Part shown: piece by piece, positions 6,233-44,089 of the stretch | Position numbering within the stretch: the stretch's first letter is position 1 | How the letters are laid out: every line of letters starts with the position of its first letter | Program-made: the position numbers and the translations under genes | The notes under the pieces: generated by a model | Database searches by the model: none | What the model was told of the DNA's origin: nothing | The model's input: the letters and a program-made list of their open reading frames with translations, nothing else | Source of the DNA: an uncultured Bacilli bacterium | GTDB lineage: Bacteria; Bacillota_I; Bacilli_A; RF39; UBA660 | Reading direction: 5' to 3' | Assembly: GCA_934162265.1 (NCBI GenBank) | Contig: CAKPHZ010000001.1 | Span: 3,547 to 67,546, forward strand | DNA: 64,000 nt

Positions 6233-7399
6233 TTAATCTCTAGCAAATAAATCTCTAGTATAAACTTTATCCATAACATCTTGAATATTATTGTCTAATC
6301 TATTTACAATAATAACATCAGATATTTCTTTAAATTCATCTATATCTTTAATCACCCTACTATTAAAGAAATTATCTTCTTTTAAAGTTGGTTCATAAAC
6401 AACAACTTCAATTCCTTTAGCTTTAATTCTTTTCATTACTCCTTGAATAGCACTTGCTCTAAAATTATCTGAACCAGATTTCATTGTTAATCTATAAATA
6501 CCAACAATTTTTGGATTTTTCTTAAGAATCATATTAGCGATATGATCTTTTCTCGTTTTATTAGATTCAACTATAGCACTAATAATATTTTCTGGAACAT
6601 CTTTATAATTAGCTTTTAATTGTTTACTATCCTTAGGAAGACAATATCCACCAAATCCAAAACTAGGATTATTATAGTGATTTCCTATTCTAGGGTCTAA
6701 ACATACACCATCAATAATATCTTTAGTATTTAATCCTTTTAATTCTGCATATGTATCTAATTCATTAAAGTAAGCAACACGAAGTGCTAAATAAGTATTA
6801 GCAAACAACTTCACAGCTTCTGCTTCAGTAGAACCCATATATTTAATTATTACATCATCTTTTAAACAATTATCCTTTAAAAGATTAGCAAAAACTTTAG
6901 CTCTATCACTTATCTCTCCTACAATAATTCTAGAAGGATATAAATTATCATATAAAGCTTTACCTTCTCTTAAAAATTCTGGACTAAACATAATATTATC
7001 AATACCATATTTTTCTTTCATTGATTTAATAAATCCAACAGGAATGGTAGATTTAACAACCATAGTTGTATCAATATTCATTGAAATAACTTTTTCGATA
7101 ATATCTTCAACAGAAGATGTATCAAAATAATCTTTTTCAGAATCATAATTAGTAGGTGTACTAATAATAATAAATTTAGCATTAGTAAATGCTTCTTTGT
7201 AATCTAAAGTTGCTTTTAAATTTAATTCTTTTTCTTTAAAATACTTCTCAATATATTCATCTTGAATAGGACTAATTCTATTATTAATTTTTTCTACTTT
7301 CTCTGGAATAACATCAAGTGCTACTACCTCATTATTTTGACTTAATAAAGTTGCTAAGGATAATCCAACATATCCTGTTCCTGCTACTGCTATTTTCAT
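6233..7399 (-). CDS. ugd: UDP-glucose 6-dehydrogenase
   Basis: N-terminal Rossmann motif [19 protein letters not shown], a GGYCLPKD catalytic-Cys region, and the 388-aa length typical of UDP-glucose/GDP-mannose dehydrogenases. Confidence 0.85.
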
Positions 7400-7429
7400 T
7401 TTAAATTCCTTCTTTCAAATTATTTATTT

Positions 7430-9457
7430 TTATTTTATATACTTTAAACATTCAATAAAGTAATTGTTATTTACTATATCACTATGATTAAATTTATCAA
7501 GATTAAACTTTATATTACTATCTTTTTCTTTTAAAAAGTATACTTTTTTAAAGGTATAGTTAATTATACCATTTACTTCATTTCTATCCATATTAATAGA
7601 ATCAATATAGAATATATTATTAAAATCTTTATCAATAACATATTTCATAAAACTATGATTATTACTTAATATAGTGGGATACTTTCCATTTCTTAAATAA
7701 TCTTCATTATTAAATTTATAATTATATATTTTTATTTCTTCTAATATTAAATCTACTATATTAAAGTTATAATTATAGTTAAAATTTATATTTCTAATAT
7801 AACTATTATTATTTCTAATTGCATTAGATAAAGATTCTCTATCTGTATATATTTCTTCTTTTGGAATAATATCTTCTTTAGGTAATATAAATTCTTTTTC
7901 ATTTATAGAATTAGATGATATTATGTTGTCTGTATTAATTGTAGGAATAGAAACAACATCTAAAGAACCATCATTATCAATATCTTCTAATACATATTTA
8001 TTCTTCTTTACTCCTAGTTTTTTCAATACTTTATTTAAATCTATAACTGATAATATATATTTAATATTTAAAATACAATAAATACTTCCACCTATTAAGA
8101 CTTGCAAAAGCAATCTTAATATAGGAGATAAACTAATATTATTTAATGGATATATACATAATAACATTATTATTCCTTTTATAAAGAATGGAAATACCTC
8201 TTTTATATATTTTCCTACTGGTAATTCTTTTCTTACTGCAAATGTTTGATATAACATTACAGATACTTCAGCAGCTATTGTTCCTATACATGCACCTATA
8301 CTTTTTAATCTTGAAATAAATATAAAATTTAAGATTAAATTAATTAATGCTCCTAAAGAAACAGATATAATATAAACTTTATCTTTTTCCTTTGGAATTA
8401 AATACTGAGTTCTAAGAACATTAGCAAAAGATAAGAAAGGTAAAGTTGTTGCTAACATTATCATTAAGATCCCTGTTTTTTGAAATTCTTTTCCAAAATA
8501 GAATGGAGCAAAATGATAAGATATGCCTATTAATCCAAAACACATTGCAAAAGACATAAACATTACAAATTTTATAGATTTTTTTATATACTGTTCAACC
8601 TTACTTAATTCCCCTTTTGCAATAATGTTTGATATCCTTGGTAGCATTACTGTACCAAGTGCTGTAATTAAAGTCATTGGCATACTTATAATTTTTTCAG
8701 CATTCTCATAATAACCAACTTCTGTAACGCTTGTCATAGCACCAAGCATAACTTTATCCATCATTTTATATAAACTAACAGCAACTACTGGTATAAATAA
8801 AATTAAATTGGGTTTTATATGTTTAATAATATCTTTTTTATTTATAGGCACAAAAGATATTTTTTTCTTTAAAAATCCCCATAAAATTAATTGACTTAAG
8901 CATGTCATACCAGACATTATTAGTGTATACTTCCATAAATCATTTTTTCCTTTTACTAGTAAAAATATTAATAAAATATTCCCTAGTTTCACAAAAGTAT
9001 TTCTAGTAATTGTTTTTTTAAATTCTTCCATTCCAAAGAAGAACCAGTTAACATCTAATATTGCTGATAAAACAAACAAAGTTTGTATTATTGCTATATT
9101 TTTGTATTTTATATCAAACAAACATATATATCCAATATAAGCAATTAACATTATAATTCCCATTAACAATTGAAATAAATATATACTCCAAAAAGTTTTT
9201 GATAATTCTTTTTTATTATCTCTAACTTTTGCTATTGAGCGATTACCATAATTATTAACCCCTAACAATGTTAATAGCATAAAGTAATATACTATTGAAT
9301 ATGTATATGAATAAGTTCCTACCCCTTTAGCGCCAACTACCCTAGCAAGATAAGGTGCTGTAATCAATGGTATTAGTAAAATTAAAATTTGATATATAAG
9401 ATTATATATAAAATTCTTTTTTGCACTATTCACAATTATCAGCATCCTTTTTTGCAT
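7430..9457 (-). CDS. wzx: Wzx-type polysaccharide flippase (MOP superfamily) with a C-terminal soluble extension of about 200 aa
   Basis: The first ~480 aa are polytopic membrane protein with the polysaccharide-biosynthesis (Wzx) topology. Residues ~480-675 are hydrophilic and Asn/Asp/Tyr-rich, with no transmembrane segments. Confidence 0.7.
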   Translation of the reverse strand: MQKRMLIIVNSAKKNFIYNLIYQILILLIPLITAPYLARVVGAKGVGTYSYTYSIVYYFMLLTLLGVNNYGNRSIAKVRDNKKELSKTFWSIYLFQLLMGIIMLIAYIGYICLFDIKYKNIAIIQTLFVLSAILDVNWFFFGMEEFKKTITRNTFVKLGNILLIFLLVKGKNDLWKYTLIMSGMTCLSQLILWGFLKKKISFVPINKKDIIKHIKPNLILFIPVVAVSLYKMMDKVMLGAMTSVTEVGYYENAEKIISMPMTLITALGTVMLPRISNIIAKGELSKVEQYIKKSIKFVMFMSFAMCFGLIGISYHFAPFYFGKEFQKTGILMIMLATTLPFLSFANVLRTQYLIPKEKDKVYIISVSLGALINLILNFIFISRLKSIGACIGTIAAEVSVMLYQTFAVRKELPVGKYIKEVFPFFIKGIIMLLCIYPLNNISLSPILRLLLQVLIGGSIYCILNIKYILSVIDLNKVLKKLGVKKNKYVLEDIDNDGSLDVVSIPTINTDNIISSNSINEKEFILPKEDIIPKEEIYTDRESLSNAIRNNNSYIRNINFNYNYNFNIVDLILEEIKIYNYKFNNEDYLRNGKYPTILSNNHSFMKYVIDKDFNNIFYIDSINMDRNEVNGIINYTFKKVYFLKEKDSNIKFNLDKFNHSDIVNNNYFIECLKYIK

Positions 9458-10601
9458 TAAACAATTGACTAGAGAAATACATCAACATCCAAATGAAAAA
9501 AAGTGCAAATGTTCCAGAATAACTAAATGGCTCAGTTATCCACATAAAAGCATAAGAAATCATTGTTGAAATAAATATATTTTTGATTTTAGTATCCGTA
9601 CATTTTAAAATTCTTTTACTAACAACAAAAATTAAAGCAAATATATAAAGTAATAATAAAACTCCTCCTTCAAACAAAAAATTTAAAAATTGATTATGTG
9701 TTGATGATGCCCCTAACATTAATGTTCTTTTAATTGAATCAACTCTACCAATTCCTATAATTGGGTGAAGTTTAAAATATATTAATGCTTTATTCCAAAT
9801 GTCTATCCTTCCAGAAAATGTAATATCTTTATGCAATATATTTTCAATAAAATTTCTAAAATAAATTTGAATGTTTGCACCTATTATGAGAAATGACATT
9901 ATACCAGAATAACAAAAAGCTTTGAATGGTGTAATTATTTTTTGAAATAGTTTTTTAGTCATAACAATATATGAAAGAATAAATATTAAATATCCTAACA
10001 ATCCGGTTATTGGTTTGGTAATTAGCAGTGTAATTAATACGCAAAAAATATAAAAATATGATCGCAATCCAATTTTTTTATTCTTTATATAATCAGCAAC
10101 TAATATCAAACATGTTCCTGGTAATAAATATCTAATGGCTACATTAACATGATCAAATAAATAGTAATTTCTTACTGTTGAAACATGATATAAGCCATCT
10201 GGGAAAAATATTACAATAAAAAAATTAATATATGTAAGAACTTCAAAAGCAAAGGCTGGTGCTCTCAAATATTTTAAAACCTTATTTTTATCAAAATATC
10301 CCCATAATAAAAAACTCATAACAGAAATTCCATTTTCAAACACTAGTGAATATAACGAACCATTGTTCAATATTGTAGGAATTAATAACAATAAGTAATA
10401 GCCACAAATATACTTAACAAACTTGCTAAAAACTATTTTTTTATTTAACAAACTTACAGAAATAAAAGTAAATAAACTTCCTATAAAATAGTAAATAGAT
10501 ATTTTTTCTATATAATGACCCAAGCATGGAATATATATGGTGCAAATAAAATTAAAAAATAAGAAAAACATTATTATTTTATCTTTCACATCTTTTATCA
10601 T
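9426..10601 (-). CDS. wzy: O-antigen/capsule polymerase-like (Wzy / O-antigen ligase family) membrane protein
   Basis: 391-aa polytopic membrane protein with a large loop region, located in the capsule locus between wzx and the glycosyltransferases. Confidence 0.55.
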   Translation of the reverse strand: MIKDVKDKIIMFFLFFNFICTIYIPCLGHYIEKISIYYFIGSLFTFISVSLLNKKIVFSKFVKYICGYYLLLLIPTILNNGSLYSLVFENGISVMSFLLWGYFDKNKVLKYLRAPAFAFEVLTYINFFIVIFFPDGLYHVSTVRNYYLFDHVNVAIRYLLPGTCLILVADYIKNKKIGLRSYFYIFCVLITLLITKPITGLLGYLIFILSYIVMTKKLFQKIITPFKAFCYSGIMSFLIIGANIQIYFRNFIENILHKDITFSGRIDIWNKALIYFKLHPIIGIGRVDSIKRTLMLGASSTHNQFLNFLFEGGVLLLLYIFALIFVVSKRILKCTDTKIKNIFISTMISYAFMWITEPFSYSGTFALFFIWMLMYFSSQLFNAKKDADNCE

Positions 10602-11757
10602 ATATGTTTTCCCCCTCTATGTAAGATAAATATTGCTTTGACATATCGTATTCATTATATTCAAGTGCAGTTTTTATTGCATTTCTAGAAAGTTTATCTA
10701 TTTTTGTTTTATCTAATTTTTTAATTTTTTTTATGCATTCTACTAAAGAATTTATATTAGGACTAACCAAAAATCCATTATCGCTATCGACAATAATTCC
10801 ATCTATTCCTTCTTTCAGAGTGCCAATAGTAATACAACCTTTCGACATTGCTTCTAAATAAACCAATCCTAATGTTTCTTTTACACTTGGCATACAAAAG
10901 ACATCACTTTCTTCCATTGTTTTTAAAACTTCTTTGCGAGATTTTTTTCCTAAAAAGCAAACATTTTTTTCAATTTTTAAATCAGATACTAGTTTCTTAT
11001 ACTCATCATTCATTTTTCCAACACCAATAATATCTAACTTCCAAGTATTTCGATCAAAAGTAGATAGGGACTTTATTAATAAGTCTAAATTTTTTCTTTT
11101 AATTAATTTTCCAACATACAAAAATTTTAGCATTTTAGTATCTATGACTTTTTTATTTTTTAGTTTTATAGTATTAACCCCTGAATTAATAATTCTATCA
11201 TCTAAATTTTTTAAATTAAATTTTTTAACTTCATCATGAATAGCCTTACTTCTACAAAAAACTTTTTGAAAATTTTTTTCTAAAAACTTTTTGAATTTAG
11301 TCGGATGTTTTTTTAAGTACTGCAAATCAGTTTGATGTAAAATGGCATATTTATTATTAGAAAATATATTAACTAAAAATTGTGAGGTCGAAGGTAAATG
11401 AAAAACAATAAATTTATAATTTTTTAACATGTTATTTTTTTTCAAAATTCTCTTACTTACATAATAATCAAATGAATTTCCATTTATTTGATTGGGAATT
11501 AAGTTTTGTCTTTCAGATATGACGACATTAACATTATCACAATCATAATTATATCCATTTAAAATTTTTTTCATCTTATTAGGAGTTATAATATTTTTTA
11601 TTTTTGAAAAACCATTAATATAATTAAAAAGAACATTAACATTATAATCATTAGTCCAATATTTTACCAAAGTATGAACACAATCAGAATCTTGTATCAA
11701 ATCATTTCTTCCCATGATTTTATATAAAGGCGTTACTACTAATACATCATCCTTCAT
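10579..11757 (-). CDS. Glycosyltransferase family 4 (GT-B, GT1/GT4 fold)
   Basis: C-terminal motif EAMSKGCITIGTLKEGIDGIIVDSDNGFLV, typical of GT4 EX7E glycosyltransferases. Confidence 0.8.
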   Translation of the reverse strand: MKDDVLVVTPLYKIMGRNDLIQDSDCVHTLVKYWTNDYNVNVLFNYINGFSKIKNIITPNKMKKILNGYNYDCDNVNVVISERQNLIPNQINGNSFDYYVSKRILKKNNMLKNYKFIVFHLPSTSQFLVNIFSNNKYAILHQTDLQYLKKHPTKFKKFLEKNFQKVFCRSKAIHDEVKKFNLKNLDDRIINSGVNTIKLKNKKVIDTKMLKFLYVGKLIKRKNLDLLIKSLSTFDRNTWKLDIIGVGKMNDEYKKLVSDLKIEKNVCFLGKKSRKEVLKTMEESDVFCMPSVKETLGLVYLEAMSKGCITIGTLKEGIDGIIVDSDNGFLVSPNINSLVECIKKIKKLDKTKIDKLSRNAIKTALEYNEYDMSKQYLSYIEGENIYDKRCER

Positions 11758-12923
11758 TTTTTTTCTCCTTGAATTTTCATATATATGTCAAAGACATTTT
11801 TTGCATTATTTTTTGAAGTATATTTTTCAGAAGATACTCTCTTAGCCTCGTTACCGATTTGATTTATTTTTTTCCTATTCTTTATACACCATTCTATTTT
11901 ATTTCTTAAACTTTCAATAGATGGATATTCAAAAAATAAACCAGTTTCATCTTCTACTATCAATTCCTTATTTGCACCTGTATTAGAGGCAATAGTGCAT
12001 AACCCAGCCATCATATATTCAACTGTAACACGACCAAATCCTTCAGAAAATGAACACATAAATCCAATATCATATCTATTTAACATTTGTCTAATGTTTG
12101 GTTGGTACCCCAAAAAATTAACCATAGAATTCATATTATTTTTATTAATGTATTTTTTTAAAGTTCTAACATAGTCACTAGGACCATCTCCAATAATATC
12201 AACTTTTATAAATTTTTTATATTTTTCTTCTAAATTATTAAGCGCTTCTAACATTATATACTGGCCTTTAGATTTGCTTATTGAGCCACTAAAACAGCAT
12301 TTAAGCAATTGAGAATTTGTTTTTATATCATTATATTCAATTTGTTCTACTCCATTATACACTCTTACAATTTTGTTTTCGTCAAGACCTTTATTTACCC
12401 AATGATTTTTTACTGCATCAGAAATAGCAATAAAATAATCACAGTGCTCATTCATAAATTTTATATAATTTTTTCTAAAAGCAATTCTATTATAATCTAA
12501 ATCACCAAATTCTCTCAAATGCCAAACGTGGGGAATATTATATTTTTTTGATAATATAGCCCCTATATCACAAACATTAACGTTAGTATGAATTATATCA
12601 AAATCGTTAATATCTAAACTTGATTCTATTTTTTTTAAGGCTATCAAGTTTTTTATTTTATATTTTAAATAAAATAATGGCAATAGTGTATTTCTTATGA
12701 ATTGTTTCTTTTTGGTTCCAGCTCCCATCATAAAATTACCATGTCCTGTCACAACATATTTCCAACCATTTTTTTTACAATAATCTGTAACATTTCCCAG
12801 TTTACTTACTAGTAAAACTGGTTCTATTCCATAGTCTTTATTTAAATTTGTTAGCATTTCTAACATAGAATGCACGGCTCCATACATTTCATCTCTATCA
12901 GAATGTACCATTAATAACTTCAT
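11754..12923 (-). CDS. Glycosyltransferase family 4
   Basis: C-terminal motif GRVTVEYMMAGLCTIASNTGANKELIVEDETGLFF. Confidence 0.8.
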   Translation of the reverse strand: MKLLMVHSDRDEMYGAVHSMLEMLTNLNKDYGIEPVLLVSKLGNVTDYCKKNGWKYVVTGHGNFMMGAGTKKKQFIRNTLLPLFYLKYKIKNLIALKKIESSLDINDFDIIHTNVNVCDIGAILSKKYNIPHVWHLREFGDLDYNRIAFRKNYIKFMNEHCDYFIAISDAVKNHWVNKGLDENKIVRVYNGVEQIEYNDIKTNSQLLKCCFSGSISKSKGQYIMLEALNNLEEKYKKFIKVDIIGDGPSDYVRTLKKYINKNNMNSMVNFLGYQPNIRQMLNRYDIGFMCSFSEGFGRVTVEYMMAGLCTIASNTGANKELIVEDETGLFFEYPSIESLRNKIEWCIKNRKKINQIGNEAKRVSSEKYTSKNNAKNVFDIYMKIQGEKK

Positions 12924-12937
12924 TATTTAGCCCTCCT

Positions 12938-13966
12938 TTAATTCCTAGTTGGTTTTAATTTACTTTTTTGAAATAACGGTTTTAAATACGAATGTACTAT
13001 TCCACAGCCTAATATCATAATTCTTCTAGGAAAAAGCTTTATAATAATATTTCTAATTTTTTTCTTACTAGTTATGACTTCTTCTGATAAAGGTTCAGAT
13101 GCCCACTTTGTATTTTTATATATTTCAATATAGTGATTTACTAATGGATGATTACATTCCTGTATCCAAGGTCTTCCCTTCATAAGAAAACAAGTGGTAA
13201 AATGGACTATTGATGGATTTTCTATTGCATCTTTATACTCTGAAAAACTAACCTTAATATGCGGCTTTCTAAGTCTATTTAACTCTTGATAATTTGTCAT
13301 AAAGAATACCGATGTAACGTTAAATTTTAATGGTAATAACTTTATTTCATCTTGAGCAATTTTACAAATTGCATCATTATCTGGAAATTCCAATATTCCA
13401 TTATACTTTTTTATTGCATCTACTAAAAGTTTTTCCATCTTTTCTTTTCTATATTTTTCTAGATCAATCAATAACACACCAGAATTGATGTAACAATTTT
13501 CATCTTTTATTCCCAAATTTTTTTGATATGCTATACTTCTATAGTCATTAATTGCTCCAAAGATTTTTCCATTTAAGGGATACTTCCACATATCCAACAA
13601 TGACTTTACAACCATTGTATCACAATCTAAATATATAACTTTTTTAATATCTTTAGGTAACAACGTATCTATTAAAATTCTCGAAAACATAGATGCAGAA
13701 TATCTCTTAATATCAACTTTTTCACCAATCAATTCATCAAAACTTGGCATTTCAATAAATTTAATTTTATCTTTCACATTAAATTTTTTTTCAATTGCAA
13801 TTAATCTTTTTTTATTTTGGGCAGATATTTGTTGAGAAATAATAAAAACATTGCAAATATTATCATTATTTGTTTCAAAAAGAGAATACAAAGATACTCC
13901 TAAAACTTTTGCGAAATTATCATCTGAGGCATATAAATAATTTATTGCTTCTTTATTTTTATTCAT
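12938..13966 (-). CDS. Glycosyltransferase family 8 (RfaJ/GspA-like)
   Basis: N-terminal motif YASDDNFAKVLGVSLYSL and the DxD motif YLDCDTMVV. Confidence 0.7.
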   Translation of the reverse strand: MNKNKEAINYLYASDDNFAKVLGVSLYSLFETNNDNICNVFIISQQISAQNKKRLIAIEKKFNVKDKIKFIEMPSFDELIGEKVDIKRYSASMFSRILIDTLLPKDIKKVIYLDCDTMVVKSLLDMWKYPLNGKIFGAINDYRSIAYQKNLGIKDENCYINSGVLLIDLEKYRKEKMEKLLVDAIKKYNGILEFPDNDAICKIAQDEIKLLPLKFNVTSVFFMTNYQELNRLRKPHIKVSFSEYKDAIENPSIVHFTTCFLMKGRPWIQECNHPLVNHYIEIYKNTKWASEPLSEEVITSKKKIRNIIIKLFPRRIMILGCGIVHSYLKPLFQKSKLKPTRN

Positions 13967-14008: not shown

Positions 14009-15394
14009 TTACTTAGCCCCCTTCTTCATCACTACAACTGCAATTGTTTTAAAGAAACATTTTATATCTAATAATAGAGAACAATTTTGTGCGTAGAAAT
14101 ATTCTAAATTTAATCTTTCTTCGTAATCAATATCACTTCTACCGTTAGCAGCCCACCATCCAGTAATTCCTGGTCTAACACTCTCATATATTTCATGATT
14201 TCCATTATGAGAATCTAATTCTCCAACAACAAGAGGTCTTGGGCCAATAAAAGACATATCTCCTTTTAATACATTAATAAACTGGGGCATTTCATCTAAT
14301 GATGTTTTTCTTAATACTTTTCCTATTTTTGTAATTCTAGGATCATTTTCTAATTTTTGATTAGCTTCCCATTCTTTTCTATACTTTTTCTTTTTTAGTA
14401 ATTTTTTTAATTCTTCATCCGCATTTGGTACCATACTTCTAAATTTATAAATATAAATTAACTTTCCATTTCTTCCTACTCGTTTTTGTGTATAAAAGAT
14501 ACTATTGGTATCTTTAGTTATTAAATACATTAATTTAACAATGATAGTAATAGGTAATAAAAATATAATTCCTATTAATGCGAAAAATATATCAACCATT
14601 CTTTTAACCCCAAAATATAATTTCTTTGAAATTGTAATACTATTTTCTAATTCTAACACTTCACTCTCATTCACTACATTCACTCCTAATATATTATTAA
14701 TGACTTTATCAGTATTATTTACTAATAAATCTTCTACTACCTTTTTACTTTTAACAATTTTAAATAAATCTTTTTCTATTTCTCTATTATAGATATTACT
14801 ACTACCATGATGAATATCACTTCCAATAAAATGAATCATTCCTCTTTTTAATAATTCTTTTATCATTTTTTGACTTTTTTTGCCATAATCTCCATATATA
14901 CTTCCTATATTTCCTTGTAATAAGCATCCTTTTTTAATTAAATTTTCAAAGAATGAATAATCTTTATCATAAGAAGTATATCTTTCTGGATGGGCAATAA
15001 TTGGGATTATATTTTTCTGTTTTAATTGATATAAGACTTCTTCTAATATTAAACATTTATTATTTAGTGGCAATTCTATTAAGAGATATCTACTATTATT
15101 TAGGGTAGATATACTTCTTAATTTTGAAGATAGAGAAGAATCAATATAGACTTCATTTCCTAAGTATAGATTGATATTAATATTTAATTCTTTTAATTTT
15201 TGATTAAGTTTTTTTAATCTTTGTTTTTTTTCTGTAATATTTGCTGTATAAATAGAACCTAGAATATAATGAGGAGTTAAGATAATGTCTGTAACCCCTC
15301 TTGCACTTGCTTTTTTTAATATTTCTATACTTTCTTCTAATGATTTTGCTCCATCATCTATGCCATATAATATGTGAGAATGGATATCTTTCAT
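14009..15394 (-). CDS. Fusion protein: CpsB/Wzh PHP-family tyrosine-protein phosphatase (N-terminal) plus initiating phosphoglycosyl transferase (bacterial sugar transferase, PglC/CpsE-like) (C-terminal)
   Basis: The N-terminus MKDIHSHILYGIDDGAKSLEES...AHPERY is CpsB PHP phosphatase. The C-terminus has a single re-entrant helix and the hallmarks YIYKFRSM and DEMPQFINVLKGDMSFIGPRP of PF02397 sugar transferases. Confidence 0.75.
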   Translation of the reverse strand: MKDIHSHILYGIDDGAKSLEESIEILKKASARGVTDIILTPHYILGSIYTANITEKKQRLKKLNQKLKELNININLYLGNEVYIDSSLSSKLRSISTLNNSRYLLIELPLNNKCLILEEVLYQLKQKNIIPIIAHPERYTSYDKDYSFFENLIKKGCLLQGNIGSIYGDYGKKSQKMIKELLKRGMIHFIGSDIHHGSSNIYNREIEKDLFKIVKSKKVVEDLLVNNTDKVINNILGVNVVNESEVLELENSITISKKLYFGVKRMVDIFFALIGIIFLLPITIIVKLMYLITKDTNSIFYTQKRVGRNGKLIYIYKFRSMVPNADEELKKLLKKKKYRKEWEANQKLENDPRITKIGKVLRKTSLDEMPQFINVLKGDMSFIGPRPLVVGELDSHNGNHEIYESVRPGITGWWAANGRSDIDYEERLNLEYFYAQNCSLLLDIKCFFKTIAVVVMKKGAK

Positions 15395-16076: not shown

Positions 16077-16976
16077 CTATTCCTCCTCTTTCTTCGTTCT
16101 TTTTCTTGTTGTCTTTGTTGTTTTAGTAGTTTTTGCTGTTGCTTTTGCTGCTGTTTTTGTTGTTTTAGTAGTTTTTGTTGTTTTTTTAGTAGTAGATTTA
16201 GGAGATTCTACTTTCTTATCAATTTTTTCAAATTCTTCATCTGCTACTGTAAGATTATTCTGAATGTGTACTTCTTTCTCTTCCTTATTTTTTTGATTCA
16301 CTAATTTTTTAGCAATAGGAACTTCTCCTAATACTGGTAAATTTAGCTTGTCCTCTACTTCTTTTTTACTCTTTACTGTTCCATCAAAATAGTACATTAC
16401 AAAAACAATACCACAAGATAAAACTAATCCTAAGCAAGTAAAGATAATCATTTGTTTGACTAAATTAACATTATAAGGAATATCTTCTACTACTGCTTCA
16501 TCTATAATTGTTACATTCTCTAAGTCATAAATTTTAACAATTTCTGCTTTAAATACACCAGCAATTTGATTAGCAATAGATGCTGCTTTCTTTTTACTAG
16601 CATCACTTACCGTGATTTTAATAATTGAAGTATCACTAGCCGATGTTACTGTAATGTTTTTCGCTAACTCACTTTCTGTTAAATCTAACTTTAAGTTTTG
16701 AATAACTTGGGATAAAATCCTTCTAGATTTAATTAACTCACTATAAGTTGATACCAACTTTTCACTAATGGTTAACTCATTTTGTGTTTCGTATGCGGTT
16801 GTTGCCCTGTTATTTTTTTGTACCAAAATAATTGTTGTTGTACCATGGTACATTGGTACTTGAATTTCCTCTACATAATAGTAACCAATTAAAGCAACTA
16901 AAATAGTCATTAAGATAATAATATATGATTTTTTTAAGTAATACTTTAATAGATCCATTAAATTTAATTCTTCCAT
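16077..16976 (-). CDS. cpsC: Polysaccharide co-polymerase / chain-length regulator (CpsC/Wzd, Wzz domain) with a Lys-Thr repeat tail
   Basis: N-terminal transmembrane helix, a periplasmic-type Wzz region and a second transmembrane helix, followed by a KTTKTTKTTKTAAKATAKTTKTTKTT low-complexity tail. Confidence 0.8.
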   Translation of the reverse strand: MEELNLMDLLKYYLKKSYIIILMTILVALIGYYYVEEIQVPMYHGTTTIILVQKNNRATTAYETQNELTISEKLVSTYSELIKSRRILSQVIQNLKLDLTESELAKNITVTSASDTSIIKITVSDASKKKAASIANQIAGVFKAEIVKIYDLENVTIIDEAVVEDIPYNVNLVKQMIIFTCLGLVLSCGIVFVMYYFDGTVKSKKEVEDKLNLPVLGEVPIAKKLVNQKNKEEKEVHIQNNLTVADEEFEKIDKKVESPKSTTKKTTKTTKTTKTAAKATAKTTKTTKTTRKRTKKEEE

Positions 16977-17150: not shown

Positions 17151-17930
17151 TTAAAATGTATATCCACCATCTACACCAATATTTTGAGATGTAATATATC
17201 TTGCTTCTTCACTACATAAGAATGCTACCATATTGGCAATATCAATAGGATCTTGAGGTTTACCATTAGGAGTTCCTTTATTCCATTCTTTCCATACTTC
17301 TTCTCTTTTTTGTAAATCACTTCCTGCAATTTGATCAAGTATTTCTTCCCACATACTGGTTCTAATAATTCCTGGACAAATACAATTGACTGTTACATTA
17401 TCTAATGCGGCTTCTCTACCTAAAGATGCTGTTGCTGCTAGAACAGCTGCTTTAGTAGCACTATAAACACTGAATCCTCCTAAGCAAGCTTTTGCTGCGA
17501 TTGAAGACATATTAACTATCTTTCCAAATTTTTGTGGTCTCATTAATGCTAGTGCTTCACGACAAGAATATAATGTTCCTTTAATATTAACATCTATTGA
17601 TAAATCTATATCATGTAGGCTTTGTTTTGTAATTTCTTCCGTTAAGCAAACTCCAGCACTATTTACTACAAAATCTACTCTTCCCCATTCTTCAATTATT
17701 TTTTCATACATTTCATGTACACTCGTTGGATTAGTCACATCTAATGGATAAGCGATTGCTTCTTGACCTAGTTTTCTGATTTCATCGCAAACTTCTTCAC
17801 ATCTTTCTGGAATTTTATCTGCAACTAATACTGATGCACCATTTTTGGCAAAAAGTAAGGCACATTCTCTACCAAGTCCACTACCGCCTCCTGTTACTAA
17901 TGCTTTTTTTCCTTTAAAATTAAATTCCAT
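17151..17930 (-). CDS. Short-chain dehydrogenase/reductase (SDR) family oxidoreductase
   Basis: TGGGSGLG cofactor-binding motif and a YSATK catalytic motif. Confidence 0.8.
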   Translation of the reverse strand: MEFNFKGKKALVTGGGSGLGRECALLFAKNGASVLVADKIPERCEEVCDEIRKLGQEAIAYPLDVTNPTSVHEMYEKIIEEWGRVDFVVNSAGVCLTEEITKQSLHDIDLSIDVNIKGTLYSCREALALMRPQKFGKIVNMSSIAAKACLGGFSVYSATKAAVLAATASLGREAALDNVTVNCICPGIIRTSMWEEILDQIAGSDLQKREEVWKEWNKGTPNGKPQDPIDIANMVAFLCSEEARYITSQNIGVDGGYTF

Positions 17931-18017
17931 TTATCTTACCTCTTTTCTATTTTCTTTTTAATTATATCATAAATTAGTATAAATATATGAATAATCTTTA
18001 AAATACTTATTATTTTT

Positions 18018-20180
18018 TTACTCTGGTAATCCTCCACTTAGTGTTAAATGGACGGTTGCATCATCTCCTACGATAATTCCTTCTGGAATACTTTGAGAGA
18101 CAACATAACCTTTTCCTTCTAATTCATATTTTACCCCCATTAGTTTTAAAATATTCATGGCATCCTTATAAGATAATCCTACTAAATTGGGCATTGCTTT
18201 ATTATATTTATCTGTTAATAATGCTACAACGCTTCCTTTATAAAGTTTTCGATTAGCACTTGGATATTGAGAGATAATTTTTTCTCCTGTACCTAAAACA
18301 TATAATTTTGTATAACTTTCTAATTCACTTTTAATATTACTTGTATTTTTATTTCTATAATTTTTTACTTGATAAGTAGTTGTTTTATTATTATCCGATA
18401 CAATATTTAAATATTTACTAGTATTTACAACAACATCTTTTACCGCAGGTGCTACATAATTTGTTGTATCTTTTGGTTTCTTTAATCCTGTATAAATAAT
18501 AATTTCTGGATTATCAGCAGGATAAATTCCGGCAAAGGAATAAATATAATCTGATGCGCCTTTCATATAAGTTCCTGTTTTTTCATCATAGATTTGTGCT
18601 GTACCAGTTTTTCCCATCATAGGATATCCTTCCATATAATAAGGACTTCCTGTACATTGTTTAGAATCATTACAAACCACACTTTTCATTAACTCTTTAA
18701 TTTTTTCTATACTTTTTGCATCACTTACTTCATCAATAACTTCTGCCATTTCTTCTTGTTTTACTTTCTTAGTATTAGAGTCAACTATCTTAGAAACGAT
18801 ATAAGGTCTTAATAATTTTCCATCATTACTGATTGCCGTTAGAGCTTGAACCATTTGAATTGGCGTAATGGTAATTGCTTGCCCAAAAGTTGCCGATGCG
18901 GCATCAACATCATAATTAAATCTGACTTTACCACTCACTTCTCGATTCAAAGTAAAACCTGTCTTTTTTCCAAATCCATAATTACTGTAGCAACTTTTTA
19001 ATGTTTTTTTATCTATCATATTACTTCGAAGTAATCCAGCTGCTCCCACATTAGAACTCATTGCAAATCCATAATCATAAGTAATAGTTCCCCATCCTAC
19101 TTTATTCCAATCATGGACAACTGTTTTACTTCCATCATTTGCTACATACTCAATTTCTCCAGATTGATAAGTACTATTTCCCTCATAATTTCCTTTATCC
19201 ATAGCACATAAATAACTAAATATTTTCATTGTACTTCCTGGTTCATAAGAAAGTCCTGTCATTAAATCTACATAACTAGTCATATTCTTTTTATTAGGAT
19301 CAAAAGAAGGAGAAGTACTATAAGATAAAATTGATCCTGTCTTGGCATCAGCAACAATCATAAATCCCCATTCTGCTTTACTATCAGTCATCATTTTTTT
19401 TACAGCATTTTCCGTAAATAATTGAATGTTGCTATCAATGGTTAAATAAATGTTATCTCCATTTTCTGCCTCTTCTATATATTCTCGTCCATTAGCTATT
19501 TTATACCCATTCCGATCTTTTTCATACGTTTTATACCCACTTCGACCAGTTAAGTTTTCATTAAAGTATTCTTCTATTCCCAGTTGTCCTACCTTCCATA
19601 CATTTCCATCAGAATCTTTCTCATTAATAGTATAACCTACAGCATATGAAGCAAAGTCTCCGTTTGGATAGTATCTTTTTGTACTTGCTACAAAGTCTAT
19701 TCCAGGAAGGTTTAGATTTTTTATTTCTTCCATTTGTATTTGACTTAAATTTCTTCCTCCAGGTCCAAGTTCTACTTGATAAGCATCTTTTTTTAATAAA
19801 ATTTTTAATACTTCGACATCCATATTTAAATAAGGGGCTAATTTTTCGGCAGTAATATCTGGATCTACTACATGAAGTGGTTTTTCACTTCCCTTACTTC
19901 TACTTTTATCTAAATAAGCAATTACAGTATAACTTGCAACATCTTCTGCTAAAACATTTCCTGATTTATCTAGGATACTTCCTCTTTTTGGTAGTAGTGT
20001 TTCTTCTTTGGTATTTCTATTTTTAATAAATGCTGTAATGGTTTCGTTTCCTACTTGATAGTCTGTTGTACAAAGATAAATGATTCTTCCTGCAAAGATA
20101 CAAAAAAGGAAGATAGTTAGAGGAAACATGATATAATTTGGTTTTATTTTATTTATATTTAATTTCTTTTTCCTCGCCAT
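18018..20180 (-). CDS. pbpB: Class B penicillin-binding protein with C-terminal PASTA domains (PBP2B/PBP2x/FtsI-like)
   Basis: Transpeptidase motifs STMK, SSN and KTG, plus two C-terminal PASTA repeats. It lies downstream of rsmH-ftsL, which is dcw-cluster order. Confidence 0.85.
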   Translation of the reverse strand: MARKKKLNINKIKPNYIMFPLTIFLFCIFAGRIIYLCTTDYQVGNETITAFIKNRNTKEETLLPKRGSILDKSGNVLAEDVASYTVIAYLDKSRSKGSEKPLHVVDPDITAEKLAPYLNMDVEVLKILLKKDAYQVELGPGGRNLSQIQMEEIKNLNLPGIDFVASTKRYYPNGDFASYAVGYTINEKDSDGNVWKVGQLGIEEYFNENLTGRSGYKTYEKDRNGYKIANGREYIEEAENGDNIYLTIDSNIQLFTENAVKKMMTDSKAEWGFMIVADAKTGSILSYSTSPSFDPNKKNMTSYVDLMTGLSYEPGSTMKIFSYLCAMDKGNYEGNSTYQSGEIEYVANDGSKTVVHDWNKVGWGTITYDYGFAMSSNVGAAGLLRSNMIDKKTLKSCYSNYGFGKKTGFTLNREVSGKVRFNYDVDAASATFGQAITITPIQMVQALTAISNDGKLLRPYIVSKIVDSNTKKVKQEEMAEVIDEVSDAKSIEKIKELMKSVVCNDSKQCTGSPYYMEGYPMMGKTGTAQIYDEKTGTYMKGASDYIYSFAGIYPADNPEIIIYTGLKKPKDTTNYVAPAVKDVVVNTSKYLNIVSDNNKTTTYQVKNYRNKNTSNIKSELESYTKLYVLGTGEKIISQYPSANRKLYKGSVVALLTDKYNKAMPNLVGLSYKDAMNILKLMGVKYELEGKGYVVSQSIPEGIIVGDDATVHLTLSGGLPE

Positions 20181-20219
20181 ATATTCCCTTCTTTCTTCTT
20201 TTAAAATACTTATTTAGAT

Positions 20220-20528
20220 TTATTTTATTGTTTTAATGTTTTCACTGTGATAAGTTAGTCCATATCTTTCACTAATTTCTTTAATATTATCTAAAGATGT
20301 CATTTCATCTATTTTCATATTTAAACTTTCAATTCTTTTTCTTTGTTTTTCTACTTCAGCTTCTTGTTTTTGGATATCTAAATTCATTTGGGCTAATGAA
20401 GTTTCGCTGCAAACTATTCCTACAATTAAAAGTATGATAATTACTGCGAATAATTTATAGATAAATCTTTCTAAACTACTTAAGAATGTTTTTTTCTTCT
20501 TCTTTTTCATTTTATTTAATCCTTTCAA
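20220..20528 (-). CDS. ftsL: Cell division protein FtsL
   Basis: Small bitopic protein with a poly-Lys N-terminus, one transmembrane helix and a coiled coil, positioned between rsmH and the PBP gene. Confidence 0.6.
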   Translation of the reverse strand: MKGLNKMKKKKKKTFLSSLERFIYKLFAVIIILLIVGIVCSETSLAQMNLDIQKQEAEVEKQRKRIESLNMKIDEMTSLDNIKEISERYGLTYHSENIKTIK

Positions 20529-21444
20529 TTACTCTAAGTCGTGCACTATGGGCTCTTGTATTTTCATTTAATTCTTCCCTACTTGCTATAATTCCTTTAG
20601 AAATAATTTTATATTTTGGTAAATACTCTTCTGGAATAAATGGTAAATTTTTAAATTCTTTAGGAATGCTACTATATTCTTGAAACATATTTTTTACTAT
20701 TCTGTCTTCTAATGAATGAAAGCTAATGACACAGCATCTTCCTCCTATATCTAATAAATCTAAAGCTTGTTTTAATCCTGTTTTTAAAACATCTAATTCA
20801 TGATTTACTTCAATTCTTATTGCTTGGAAGGTTTTTCTTGCTGGGTGTCCATCACGCATTGCTTTCATTGGCATACTCATTTTAATGATATCTACTAGTT
20901 GAAAAGTTGTTTCTATGGGTTGTTTTTCTCTTTCTTTAATGATATTTTTAGCAATACTTGTTGCATATTTTTCTTCTCCATAATCTCTTAATATTCTTAC
21001 TAATTCAGGGTAAGAGTATGTATTTACTACATCATGAGCAGAAAATGGTGAAGTAGTATCCATTCTCATATCCAATTTTGCATCCTGATGAAAACTAAAA
21101 CCTCTTTTCGCATCATCAATTTGTACAGATGATACCCCTAAATCAAAAAGAATGCCATTTACTTTATCCACTTGATAATTGGCTAATTTTTCTTTCAACT
21201 TAGAAAAGTTACTTCTAATGATGGTGTAATGATTTGAAATTGTCTTTAATTTTTCATTACTTTTCTCAATCGCAAAATCATCTTGATCGAAGCCATATAA
21301 ATGTCCATTCGTTAATTTTTTTAAAATCTCACTGCTATGTCCTGCATAACCTAGGGTAGCATCCACATAAATACCATCTGGTTGAATATTCAAGTTTTCA
21401 ATCACTTCGTTTAATAAAACACTTTTATGATACATCAGCATCAC
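20512..21444 (-). CDS. rsmH: 16S rRNA (cytosine1402-N4)-methyltransferase RsmH (MraW)
   Basis: N-terminal motif HKSVLLNEVIENL...DGIYVDATLGYAGHS and the 310-aa length typical of RsmH. Confidence 0.9.
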   Translation of the reverse strand: MMLMYHKSVLLNEVIENLNIQPDGIYVDATLGYAGHSSEILKKLTNGHLYGFDQDDFAIEKSNEKLKTISNHYTIIRSNFSKLKEKLANYQVDKVNGILFDLGVSSVQIDDAKRGFSFHQDAKLDMRMDTTSPFSAHDVVNTYSYPELVRILRDYGEEKYATSIAKNIIKEREKQPIETTFQLVDIIKMSMPMKAMRDGHPARKTFQAIRIEVNHELDVLKTGLKQALDLLDIGGRCCVISFHSLEDRIVKNMFQEYSSIPKEFKNLPFIPEEYLPKYKIISKGIIASREELNENTRAHSARLRVIERIK

Positions 21445-25644: not shown

Positions 25645-25721
25645 GTCCTCGTAGCACAGCTGGATAGTGCAATCGCCTCCTAAGCGATAGGTCGTGTGTT
25701 CGAATCACATCGGGGACGCCA
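25645..25721 (+). tRNA. tRNA-Arg (anticodon CCT)
   Basis: 77-nt cloverleaf: 7-bp acceptor stem GTCCTCG/CGGGGAC, anticodon loop CTCCTAA, T-loop TTCGAAT, and an encoded CCA end. Confidence 0.85.
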
Positions 25722-44012: not shown

Positions 44013-44089
44013 GCGCCCATAGCCCAATTGGATAGAGCGTCTGGCTACGGACCAGAAGGTTTGGGGTTCGAATCCCTATGGGCGCACCA
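44013..44089 (+). tRNA. tRNA-Arg (anticodon ACG)
   Basis: Acceptor stem GCGCCCA/TGGGCGC, anticodon loop CTACGGA, T-loop TTCGAAT and an encoded CCA end. It is followed by a terminator. Confidence 0.85.

Follow-up and report, generated by a model that had tools for sequence, protein, structure and literature searches.

In streptococcal capsule loci, the genes run in the order cpsA-B-C-D-E, and CpsE is a large phosphoglycosyl transferase (PGT) with an N-terminal membrane bundle. A direct link between the regulatory kinase/phosphatase pair and the PGT has so far been shown biochemically mainly for CapM of Staphylococcus aureus, and the targets of CpsB/CpsD elsewhere are debated. The S. aureus bacterial tyrosine kinase (BY-kinase) CapA1B1 phosphorylates the small PGT CapM at the conserved Tyr157, which activates it 4-fold, an effect lost in the Y157F mutant; the PHP phosphatases CapC1/C2 dephosphorylate the kinase and the kinase targets, and an equivalent tyrosine site has been proposed in Streptococcus thermophilus EpsE (Y200) (PMC6441080). 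In Bacillus subtilis, the PHP phosphatase YwqE acts on its cognate BY-kinase and on Ugd (PMC2364625). Among monotopic PGTs (monoPGTs), the BiPGT class comprises proteins whose core is fused, N- or C-terminally, to another catalytic domain of the same pathway (PMC11626204). Here, we describe a gene in a 64-kb stretch of DNA from an uncultured gut Bacilli bacterium (contig CAKPHZ010000001.1; the whole stretch is referred to as the window) in which a CpsB-type phosphatase and a small PGT form one polypeptide. We consider it probable that positions 14009 to 15394 hold a genuine bifunctional gene, with an intact PHP phosphatase and a small monotopic PGT, that was born by a net shift of 1 nucleotide (nt) at the junction of two genes.

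The gene is an uninterrupted frame of 461 amino acids (aa) on the minus strand, beginning with ATG and ending with TAA. Two Pfam domains share it, both far above the cutoff: CpsB_CapC (PF19567) at residues 3 to 232 (E value of 1.6e-56; 191.8 bits against a cutoff of 27; model positions 3 to 233 of 234) and Bac_transf (PF02397) at residues 264 to 455 (E value of 2e-62; 210.3 bits against a cutoff of 27; model positions 1 to 178 of 179). NCBIfam assigns the N-terminal half to Cps4B and recognizes in the C-terminal half the catalytic portion of WbaP-type transferases, a sequence search of the PDB retrieved WbaP (~185 bits), PglC (~130), YwqE (113), and pneumococcal CpsB (92), and Foldseek concurs. 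These searches bear out a first-pass annotation made from the sequence alone, which had read the frame as one polypeptide carrying a CpsB phosphatase and a sugar transferase; the motifs that it quoted, HSHILYGIDDG, AHPERY, YKFRSM, and PQFINVLKGDMSFIGPRP, are all found in the translation. The catalytic motifs of both enzymes are intact. An AlphaFold2 (AF2) model (mean predicted local distance difference test [pLDDT], 85.4; predicted TM score [pTM], 0.56) shows two confident domains joined by a linker of about 30 residues, with pLDDT below 50 at residues 241 to 254, where disorder is predicted. In this linker, what used to be the tail of CpsB is followed by the read-through junction and then by the stretch that once extended the small PGT at its N terminus (VNESEVLELEN...).

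A missed stop codon or a frameshift in assembly or sequencing could merge two genes into such a frame, an explanation that we find extremely unlikely. The first-pass annotation had marked positions 14650 to 14750 for this check; no missed stop or frameshift lies there. An identical protein is encoded on at least four independent contigs (including ENA ERZ27287266 and Logan ERR7738601, and also in NCBI), and more than 85 distinct fused sequences are spread over more than 100 contigs that were assembled independently (NCBI, ENA, and Logan); because independent assemblies carry the same open frame, a missed stop or frameshift can be set aside. Both Pfam domains lie on one chain in 17 fused clusters defined at 90% identity, and no stop interrupts the frame at identities ranging from 96% to 45%; four of these clusters, when looked up, contained 8, 32, 35, and 6 distinct full-length fused sequences on many contigs. 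The fused frame has a dN/dS of 0.11, which indicates purifying selection; relative to L001, an 88%-identical ortholog from a Hadza gut metagenome-assembled genome (MAG), the values are 0.12 for the CpsB half, 0.15 for the linker (from few sites), and 0.06 for the PGT half, and the substitutions across the junction are mostly synonymous. What could be said for an artefact is that more distant relatives are truly split and that one Hadza gut contig with 2.7x coverage (L025, positions 207 to 1592) has TGA for AGA at codon 265, with an ATG (M266) next, while the rest of its fused gene is near-identical. This TGA is either a nonsense allele that splits the gene again or a read error. We rejected the possibility that this copy (P0017) represents the ancestral split state, since it differs by a single AGA-to-TGA change in a near-identical fused gene on a low-coverage contig. 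An alternative code with TGA as tryptophan was also rejected: TGA terminates 7 of 52 long open reading frames (ORFs), and tryptophan is encoded by TGG, as in the standard code.

The phosphatase half contains the four PHP motifs with their His, Asp, and Glu metal ligands (HxH, TPH, AHPER, and SDxH), which align to those of YwqE and Cps4B. Residues D3, H5, H7, D13/D14, H42, E81, E107, H135 (within AHPER), D193, and H195 are invariant in alignments of 49 and 12 sequences. When counterpart PHP residues are mutated in Wzb or CpsB, activity is lost or reduced (PMC2364625). In the AF2 model, where pLDDT for this domain is mostly above 85, Foldseek recovered the distorted TIM-barrel PHP fold, with YwqE (3qy6; TM score, 0.87; root mean square deviation [RMSD], 2.2 Å) and Cps4B (2wjd/3qy8; TM score, 0.85 to 0.88) as matches and RMSD values of 2.2 to 2.8 Å overall. 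The CpsB half is a putative metal-dependent phosphotyrosine phosphatase of the adjacent BY-kinase, which carries a C-terminal tyrosine cluster.

Some natural variants deviate from this pattern. The fused alleles P0003, P0004, and P0015 share a clean, in-frame deletion of 62 codons, recovered from at least two samples and with no obvious microhomology at its flanks; in P0015, it is combined with a different PGT class. Deletion alleles are located at L029 8001 to 9200 and L030 425 to 1624, and the phosphatase half is presumably dead there. The L029 locus also has upstream insertions, namely, an ISL3 transposase and an extra free small PGT. The persistence of the deletion alleles, one of them recombined with another PGT class, would be expected if the CpsB half were a degenerate pseudophosphatase that merely provides a soluble N-terminal scaffold or regulatory domain, comparable to the extra N-terminal domains of large PGTs. 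For the window protein we regard this as very unlikely, as every PHP motif residue is invariant in it and in all full-length fusions, the CpsB half evolves at a dN/dS of 0.12, and the window holds no other CpsB to serve the adjacent kinase.

The transferase half aligns end to end with the catalytic domain of WbaP (185 bits, versus 130 bits for PglC), and Foldseek placed its modeled fold close to that of PglC (TM score of ~0.8). The YKFRSM motif, the catalytic dyad D367-E368, and GPRP do not vary in the family alignment and line up with WbaP; PGT activity is predicted for this half. Preceding them, a predicted membrane helix includes the residues K264, R265, D268, and P281, all invariant in the family alignment. 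DSSP run on the AF2 model assigned residues 257 to 292 to one unbroken helix, and a hydropathy scan located the sole hydrophobic segment of the whole protein at residues ~266 to 288. Since both enzymes are cytoplasmic and the chain has a single hydrophobic helix, it could work only with a re-entrant helix of the kind established for PglC; we infer this topology for the fusion protein from its sequence. The first-pass annotation had called the transferase minimal and PglC-like. Its architecture agrees with that description, with one re-entrant-type helix and the core and no Pfam match in the fusion protein to the four-helix membrane bundle or the CoA_binding_3-like domain of large monoPGTs, but its sequence is closer to that of WbaP. 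Nor does the protein consist of the catalytic domain only, as small PGTs do, for a 235-residue CpsB domain precedes the core.

The nearest relative of the PGT half is a free small PGT, encoded in the split locus L027 and 81% identical. An origin from a large CpsE/WbaP-like PGT, which the next-best matches (453 to 454 aa) could have indicated, was rejected because those proteins are tandem Bac_transf-Bac_transf fusions. Such tandem proteins, 385 to 465 aa long and found in related gut bacteria (P0018, P0019, P0023, P0032, P0047, P0061, P0071, and P0237 to P0244), are among the closest relatives of the window PGT half.

How the two halves came to be joined can be read from relatives in which they are separate. 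Seven GTDB species representatives have a tblastn match to residues 1 to 461, and only L001 has a single ORF. The remaining six matches were rejected as fusions: in each of these MAGs, cpsB ends with TAA or TAG and is followed by a 16- to 57-nt spacer with a Shine-Dalgarno sequence and then by a separate small PGT gene of ~220 aa. In the closest split relatives, L026 and L027, the order is wzz, kinase, cpsB, and small PGT, and the last two are separated by a 14-nt gap in L026 and overlap by 8 nt in L027; CpsB of these loci is 67 to 70% identical to that of the window. The relevant ancestral order is that of these split relatives and not the streptococcal one, the frame of reference of the first-pass annotation.

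At the DNA level, the L027 junction reads GGAGTGAATGGATGTGAATGAGAG, with cpsB stopping at TGA and the PGT starting at a GTG in another frame, and the window junction reads GGAGTGAATGTAGTGAATGAGAG. The net 1-nt length difference between them falls between two GTGAATG heptamers and brings the two frames into register. The signals that once started translation of the ancestral PGT gene, a ribosome-binding site and a start codon, survive as the relic AGGAG-N8-GTG, now in frame inside the ORF, where the GTG is codon V241. Given that the ancestral cpsB and PGT genes were already adjacent and translationally coupled, fusion amounts to a one-step frame change. The stop/start junction of the coupled pair would have shifted by a net 1 nt, and with the frames in register, the spacer, the Shine-Dalgarno sequence, and the GTG start would have turned into linker codons.

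According to the available sequences, this fusion appears to have arisen repeatedly. We built neighbor-joining trees with bootstraps for the CpsB and PGT halves separately, to be read with the caveats of recombination and a simple tree method. The split L027 groups with the fused P0005/P0011 in the CpsB-half tree (100% bootstrap) and with the window group in the PGT-half tree (100%), where the split L026 also groups with the fused P0009 to P0013 (96 to 97%); the fused P0076 clusters with split genes (87%). Monophyly of the fused genes received 0% bootstrap support in both halves. Fused and split genes are thus interleaved, indicating that the fused state was gained (or lost) several times, and the distinct junction structures independently agree. 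We distinguished four such types. Besides that of the window, the P0013 type retains the relic GGGAG-N7-ATG and matches the spaced L026-type junction; P0076, from Candidatus Coprovivens, has a linker that derives from the "IKPY" CpsB tail of another split clade; and P0242, from an organism with 36% GC whose locus includes a fused Wzz-kinase and rml genes, has a further junction type, with the fusion located apart from the kinase. In the Candidatus Coprovivens locus (L023 284 to 4608/L024 4380 to 9395), Wzz-kinase pairs occur twice in succession; a free small PGT (219 aa) comes after the first pair, and the CpsB-PGT fusion comes after the second.

The CpsB-PGT architecture is rare but polyphyletic. 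We searched 1.84 billion protein representatives with a profile of 12 fused sequences and examined the best 150, of which two, P0076 and P0242, combine CpsB with Bac_transf. The remaining multi-stretch matches among them are tandem Bac_transf-Bac_transf proteins or large PGTs with CoA_binding_3; those of 630 to 700 aa were considered as kinase-CpsB-PGT triple fusions and rejected, since they proved to be large PGTs that contain CoA_binding_3 and match Bac_transf in duplicate. Among the best 120 matches listed for the CpsB half, 116 are standalone proteins of ~220 to 249 aa, a ratio that is approximate; the search for this half omitted the fusions P0001, P0002, P0005, and P0009 (76 to 96% identical over the query), so the fused counts are lower bounds.

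The fused gene is also a site of recombination. P0009 resembles the window protein closely in the CpsB half (95% identity), including the same fused junction, but falls to 48% identity in the PGT half. Its locus, L021, shares the upstream flank of the window (rnhB, cvpA, trx, rsmH, ftsL, a penicillin-binding protein [PBP] gene, a short-chain dehydrogenase/reductase [SDR] gene, wzz, and kinase), and blastn aligned the first 251 codons of the fused gene at 95% nt identity. From position 8754 onward, L021 has a different PGT half and a different set of glycosyltransferases. Because similarity ends at position 14641 of the window and the downstream glycosyltransferases differ, a serotype-like variable cassette begins inside the fused gene, a short way downstream of the junction between the two halves.

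What the fusion may do is suggested by its position and by the S. aureus precedent. The TAA of the kinase gene and the ATG of the fusion share 1 nt (TAATG), and no Shine-Dalgarno sequence precedes this ATG, which together indicate that translation of the fusion would be coupled to that of the BY-kinase. The helix would anchor a normally soluble phosphatase at the cytoplasmic face of the membrane, in a 1:1 ratio with the priming enzyme and beside the kinase. Thus tethered, the phosphatase may dephosphorylate the tyrosine cluster at the C terminus of the kinase and probably also Y434 of the PGT, in cis or within a PGT dimer. Y434 lies 27 residues from the C terminus, in a conserved E-x-x-Y-x-x-N motif, and is the probable counterpart of the regulatory phosphotyrosines CapM Y157 and EpsE Y200; if so, the fusion would join a phosphatase to one of its own substrates. 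The flexible linker would let the phosphatase reach the PGT of its own chain (in cis), that of a dimer partner, or the kinase tail, and the kinase/phosphatase cycle would thereby be tied to the first committed step, which consumes undecaprenyl phosphate. A functional coupling between the regulator of the BY-kinase and this step, as the first-pass annotation had proposed, is plausible and has an experimental precedent in CapM/CapC of S. aureus; the substrates named for the phosphatase, like any regulatory benefit of being fused, are inferred.

Several observations weigh against such a role. The architecture is rare among the best 150 representatives; motif III has been lost and the PGT half kept in the deletion alleles, so phosphatase activity is dispensable in some strains; the retained internal Shine-Dalgarno sequence and GTG could permit an additional, free PGT product; AF2 yields no confident interface between the domains (pTM of 0.56); the equivalence of Y434 and CapM Y157 is drawn from conservation and distance from the C terminus; and the mixing of fused with split forms among close relatives suggests that being fused may be nearly neutral and not strongly required. 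Taken to its conclusion, the last point describes a selectively neutral fusion: a chance frame change after which the halves act as a separate CpsB and small PGT, with no added regulation and with much of the PGT perhaps still made from the internal start. Consistent with neutrality are the high bootstrap values of the interleaved groupings, the relics of earlier starts in both the window-type and P0013-type junctions, the disordered linker without an interface, and the standalone state of nearly all the closest CpsB homologs listed (116 of 120). Small PGT modules of this group are fused in tandem as well, so the joining of adjacent capsule genes seems easy here. Nevertheless, we judge neutrality to be a serious but rather unlikely explanation, because the same two domains, in unchanged order, have become fused on at least three or four occasions through different junctions, with P0242 as a case from an unrelated locus type, because the fused frame persists to ~55% identity and through recombinational swaps of the PGT half, and because the enzyme-substrate relationship of the partners has been demonstrated in S. 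aureus.

A bifunctional protein with a regulatory role could go one step further and be a self-resetting priming enzyme. The kinase would activate the PGT through Y434 and the tethered phosphatase would reset it in cis, giving kinase-gated bursts of priming; the internal start would yield an isoform without the phosphatase, and the ratio of isoforms would set capsule output. We regard this scheme as speculative and on balance doubtful. If true, the repeated independent fusion would reflect selection for that circuit.

The fusion lies in a Wzx/Wzy capsule locus (Table 1) whose order on the minus strand is wzz/cpsC, BY-kinase, fusion, GT8, two GT4 genes, Wzy, Wzx, and UDP-glucose dehydrogenase. 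The BY-kinase is adjacent to the fusion, as the first-pass annotation had stated. A tblastn search of the window found no second CpsB or PGT, and the fused transferase is the only priming enzyme of this locus. The 5' order of streptococcal loci (cpsA-cpsB-cpsC-cpsD-cpsE) does not apply: the genes run SDR, wzz (cpsC), kinase (cpsD), and cpsB::PGT, and the stretch from the upstream PBP/SDR genes to wzz showed no cpsA. The window has a GC content of ~26%; among named organisms, its closest relatives are Candidatus Coprovivens and uncultured "Bacilli" MAGs from gut and rumen.

Table 1. Features of the fused gene and of the surrounding capsule locus (window coordinates)
Feature	Coordinates	Strand	Basis or detail
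Fused cpsB::PGT gene	14009-15394	-	461 codons plus TAA stop; ORF list, PF19567 and PF02397
CpsB/CapC PHP-type tyrosine phosphatase domain, residues 1-235	14690-15394	-	Pfam, alignments, Foldseek
Segment deleted in variants P0003/P0004/P0015	14830-15015	-	186 nt = 62 codons; removes AHPERY motif III
Linker, residues 236-263	14606-14689	-	Alignment of the junction to split relatives L026/L027
Relic ribosome-binding site and start of ancestral PGT gene, AGGAG-TGAATGTA-GTG	14672-14687	-	DNA comparison
End of nucleotide similarity with syntenic L021, at ~codon 251	14641		blastn
Predicted re-entrant membrane helix, residues 264-292	14519-14605	-	Hydropathy scan, invariant columns, AF2 helix
Cytoplasmic PGT catalytic region, residues 293-461, with YKFRSM, DE dyad, GPRP	14012-14518	-	Bac_transf, WbaP alignment, Foldseek
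D367-E368 codons, Asp-Glu catalytic dyad (SLDEMPQ)	14291-14296	-	Invariant; aligns with DE of WbaP "sldelpq"
Y434 codon, tyrosine of E-x-x-Y-x-x-N motif	14093-14095	-	Invariant; conserved in WbaP
BY-kinase (CpsD/CapB type), 226 aa	15394-16074	-	TIGR01007, 1.3e-55; C-terminal tyrosine cluster YYKNYYETY
Wzz/CpsC-type transmembrane kinase activator/chain-length protein, 299 aa	16077-16976	-	PF02706, TIGR01006
Repeat-unit cassette downstream of fusion	6233-13966	-	Pfam, gene calls on identical contig L019, ORFs
GT8	12938-13966	-	
GT4 (first)	11754-12923	-	
GT4 (second)	10579-11757	-	
Wzy	9426-10601	-	
Wzx	7430-9457	-	
UDP-glucose dehydrogenase	6233-7399	-	

Other features of the surroundings deserve mention. 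The Wzx flippase is 675 aa long and has an Asn/Ile-rich C-terminal extension of ~200 residues past the Polysacc_synt domain; flippases of 657 to 700 aa occupy the equivalent position in L021, L026, and L029. The C terminus of Wzz/CpsC (16077 to 16200, minus strand) is a low-complexity Lys/Thr-rich tail, TTKKTTKTTKTTKTAAKATAKTTKTTKTTRKRTKKEEE, which is unusual for a segment expected to contact the kinase. The capsule locus lies directly downstream of a cell-division/cell-wall cluster and the SDR gene (17151 to 21444, minus strand); the cluster includes rsmH, an ftsL-like gene, and a PASTA-containing class B PBP, and the same boundary is found in L019, L021, and L029. Two tRNA genes (25645 to 25718 and 44013 to 44086, both on the plus strand) are the only Rfam matches at the gathering threshold in the window.

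Recurrent fusion of a PHP phosphatase to a small PGT provides "Rosetta-stone" evidence for direct action of the BY-kinase/phosphatase circuit on the initiating enzyme, and it gives independent genetic support for the re-entrant topology of monoPGTs. The protein is a natural 1:1 construct for structural and biochemical work on the phosphatase-PGT-kinase complex. In these gut Bacilli, as the locus also shows, the upstream breakpoint of serotype-like cassette exchange falls within a coding sequence; the gene fusion itself is recurrent and can be read from the sequences with unusual clarity. All components are known, so that these results extend existing knowledge and overturn none, nor do they define a new kind of system. 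We found no description of a CpsB-PGT fusion in the searchable literature, outside which lay a 2021 catalogue of monoPGT fusions that may list it; database entries exist, annotated as "CpsB/CapC family capsule biosynthesis tyrosine phosphatase" in NCBI and as glycosyltransferase/tyrosine phosphatase in JGI.

Among described systems, one close parallel is the S. aureus capsule module. CapA/CapB, CapC, and CapM represent the same three families, with the same leading order of activator, kinase, and PHP phosphatase; yet S. aureus makes CapC and CapM as two proteins from genes that lie far apart in its operon, whereas the window has one polypeptide. CapM belongs to the small PGTs with a re-entrant helix, and its conserved C-terminal tyrosine is phosphorylated by the kinase (PMC6441080). 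Streptococcus pneumoniae shares with the window a CpsB-family phosphatase (2wjd/3qy8; 92 bits), a split CpsC/CpsD kinase module, and a Wzx/Wzy capsule. Its gene order differs from the C-D-B::PGT order seen here, as does the window's use of a small-type PGT. For the phosphatase half, B. subtilis YwqE (PtpZ) is the best solved match (113 bits; TM score, 0.87; RMSD, 2.2 Å), although YwqE is soluble and standalone. For the transferase half, Campylobacter concisus PglC and Salmonella WbaP have the same fold and motifs (the KR..D..P helix, a YKFRSM-type motif, the DE dyad, and GPRP); PglC lacks an N-terminal domain, and WbaP has a four-helix bundle together with a nucleotide-binding-like domain where the window protein has CpsB. 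Finally, with a monoPGT core and a second catalytic domain in one ORF, the window protein is a variant of the bifunctional monoPGT class. In the BiPGTs described so far, the partner is an acetyltransferase, a glycosyltransferase, or another enzyme of the sugar pathway; here, it is a regulatory protein tyrosine phosphatase.

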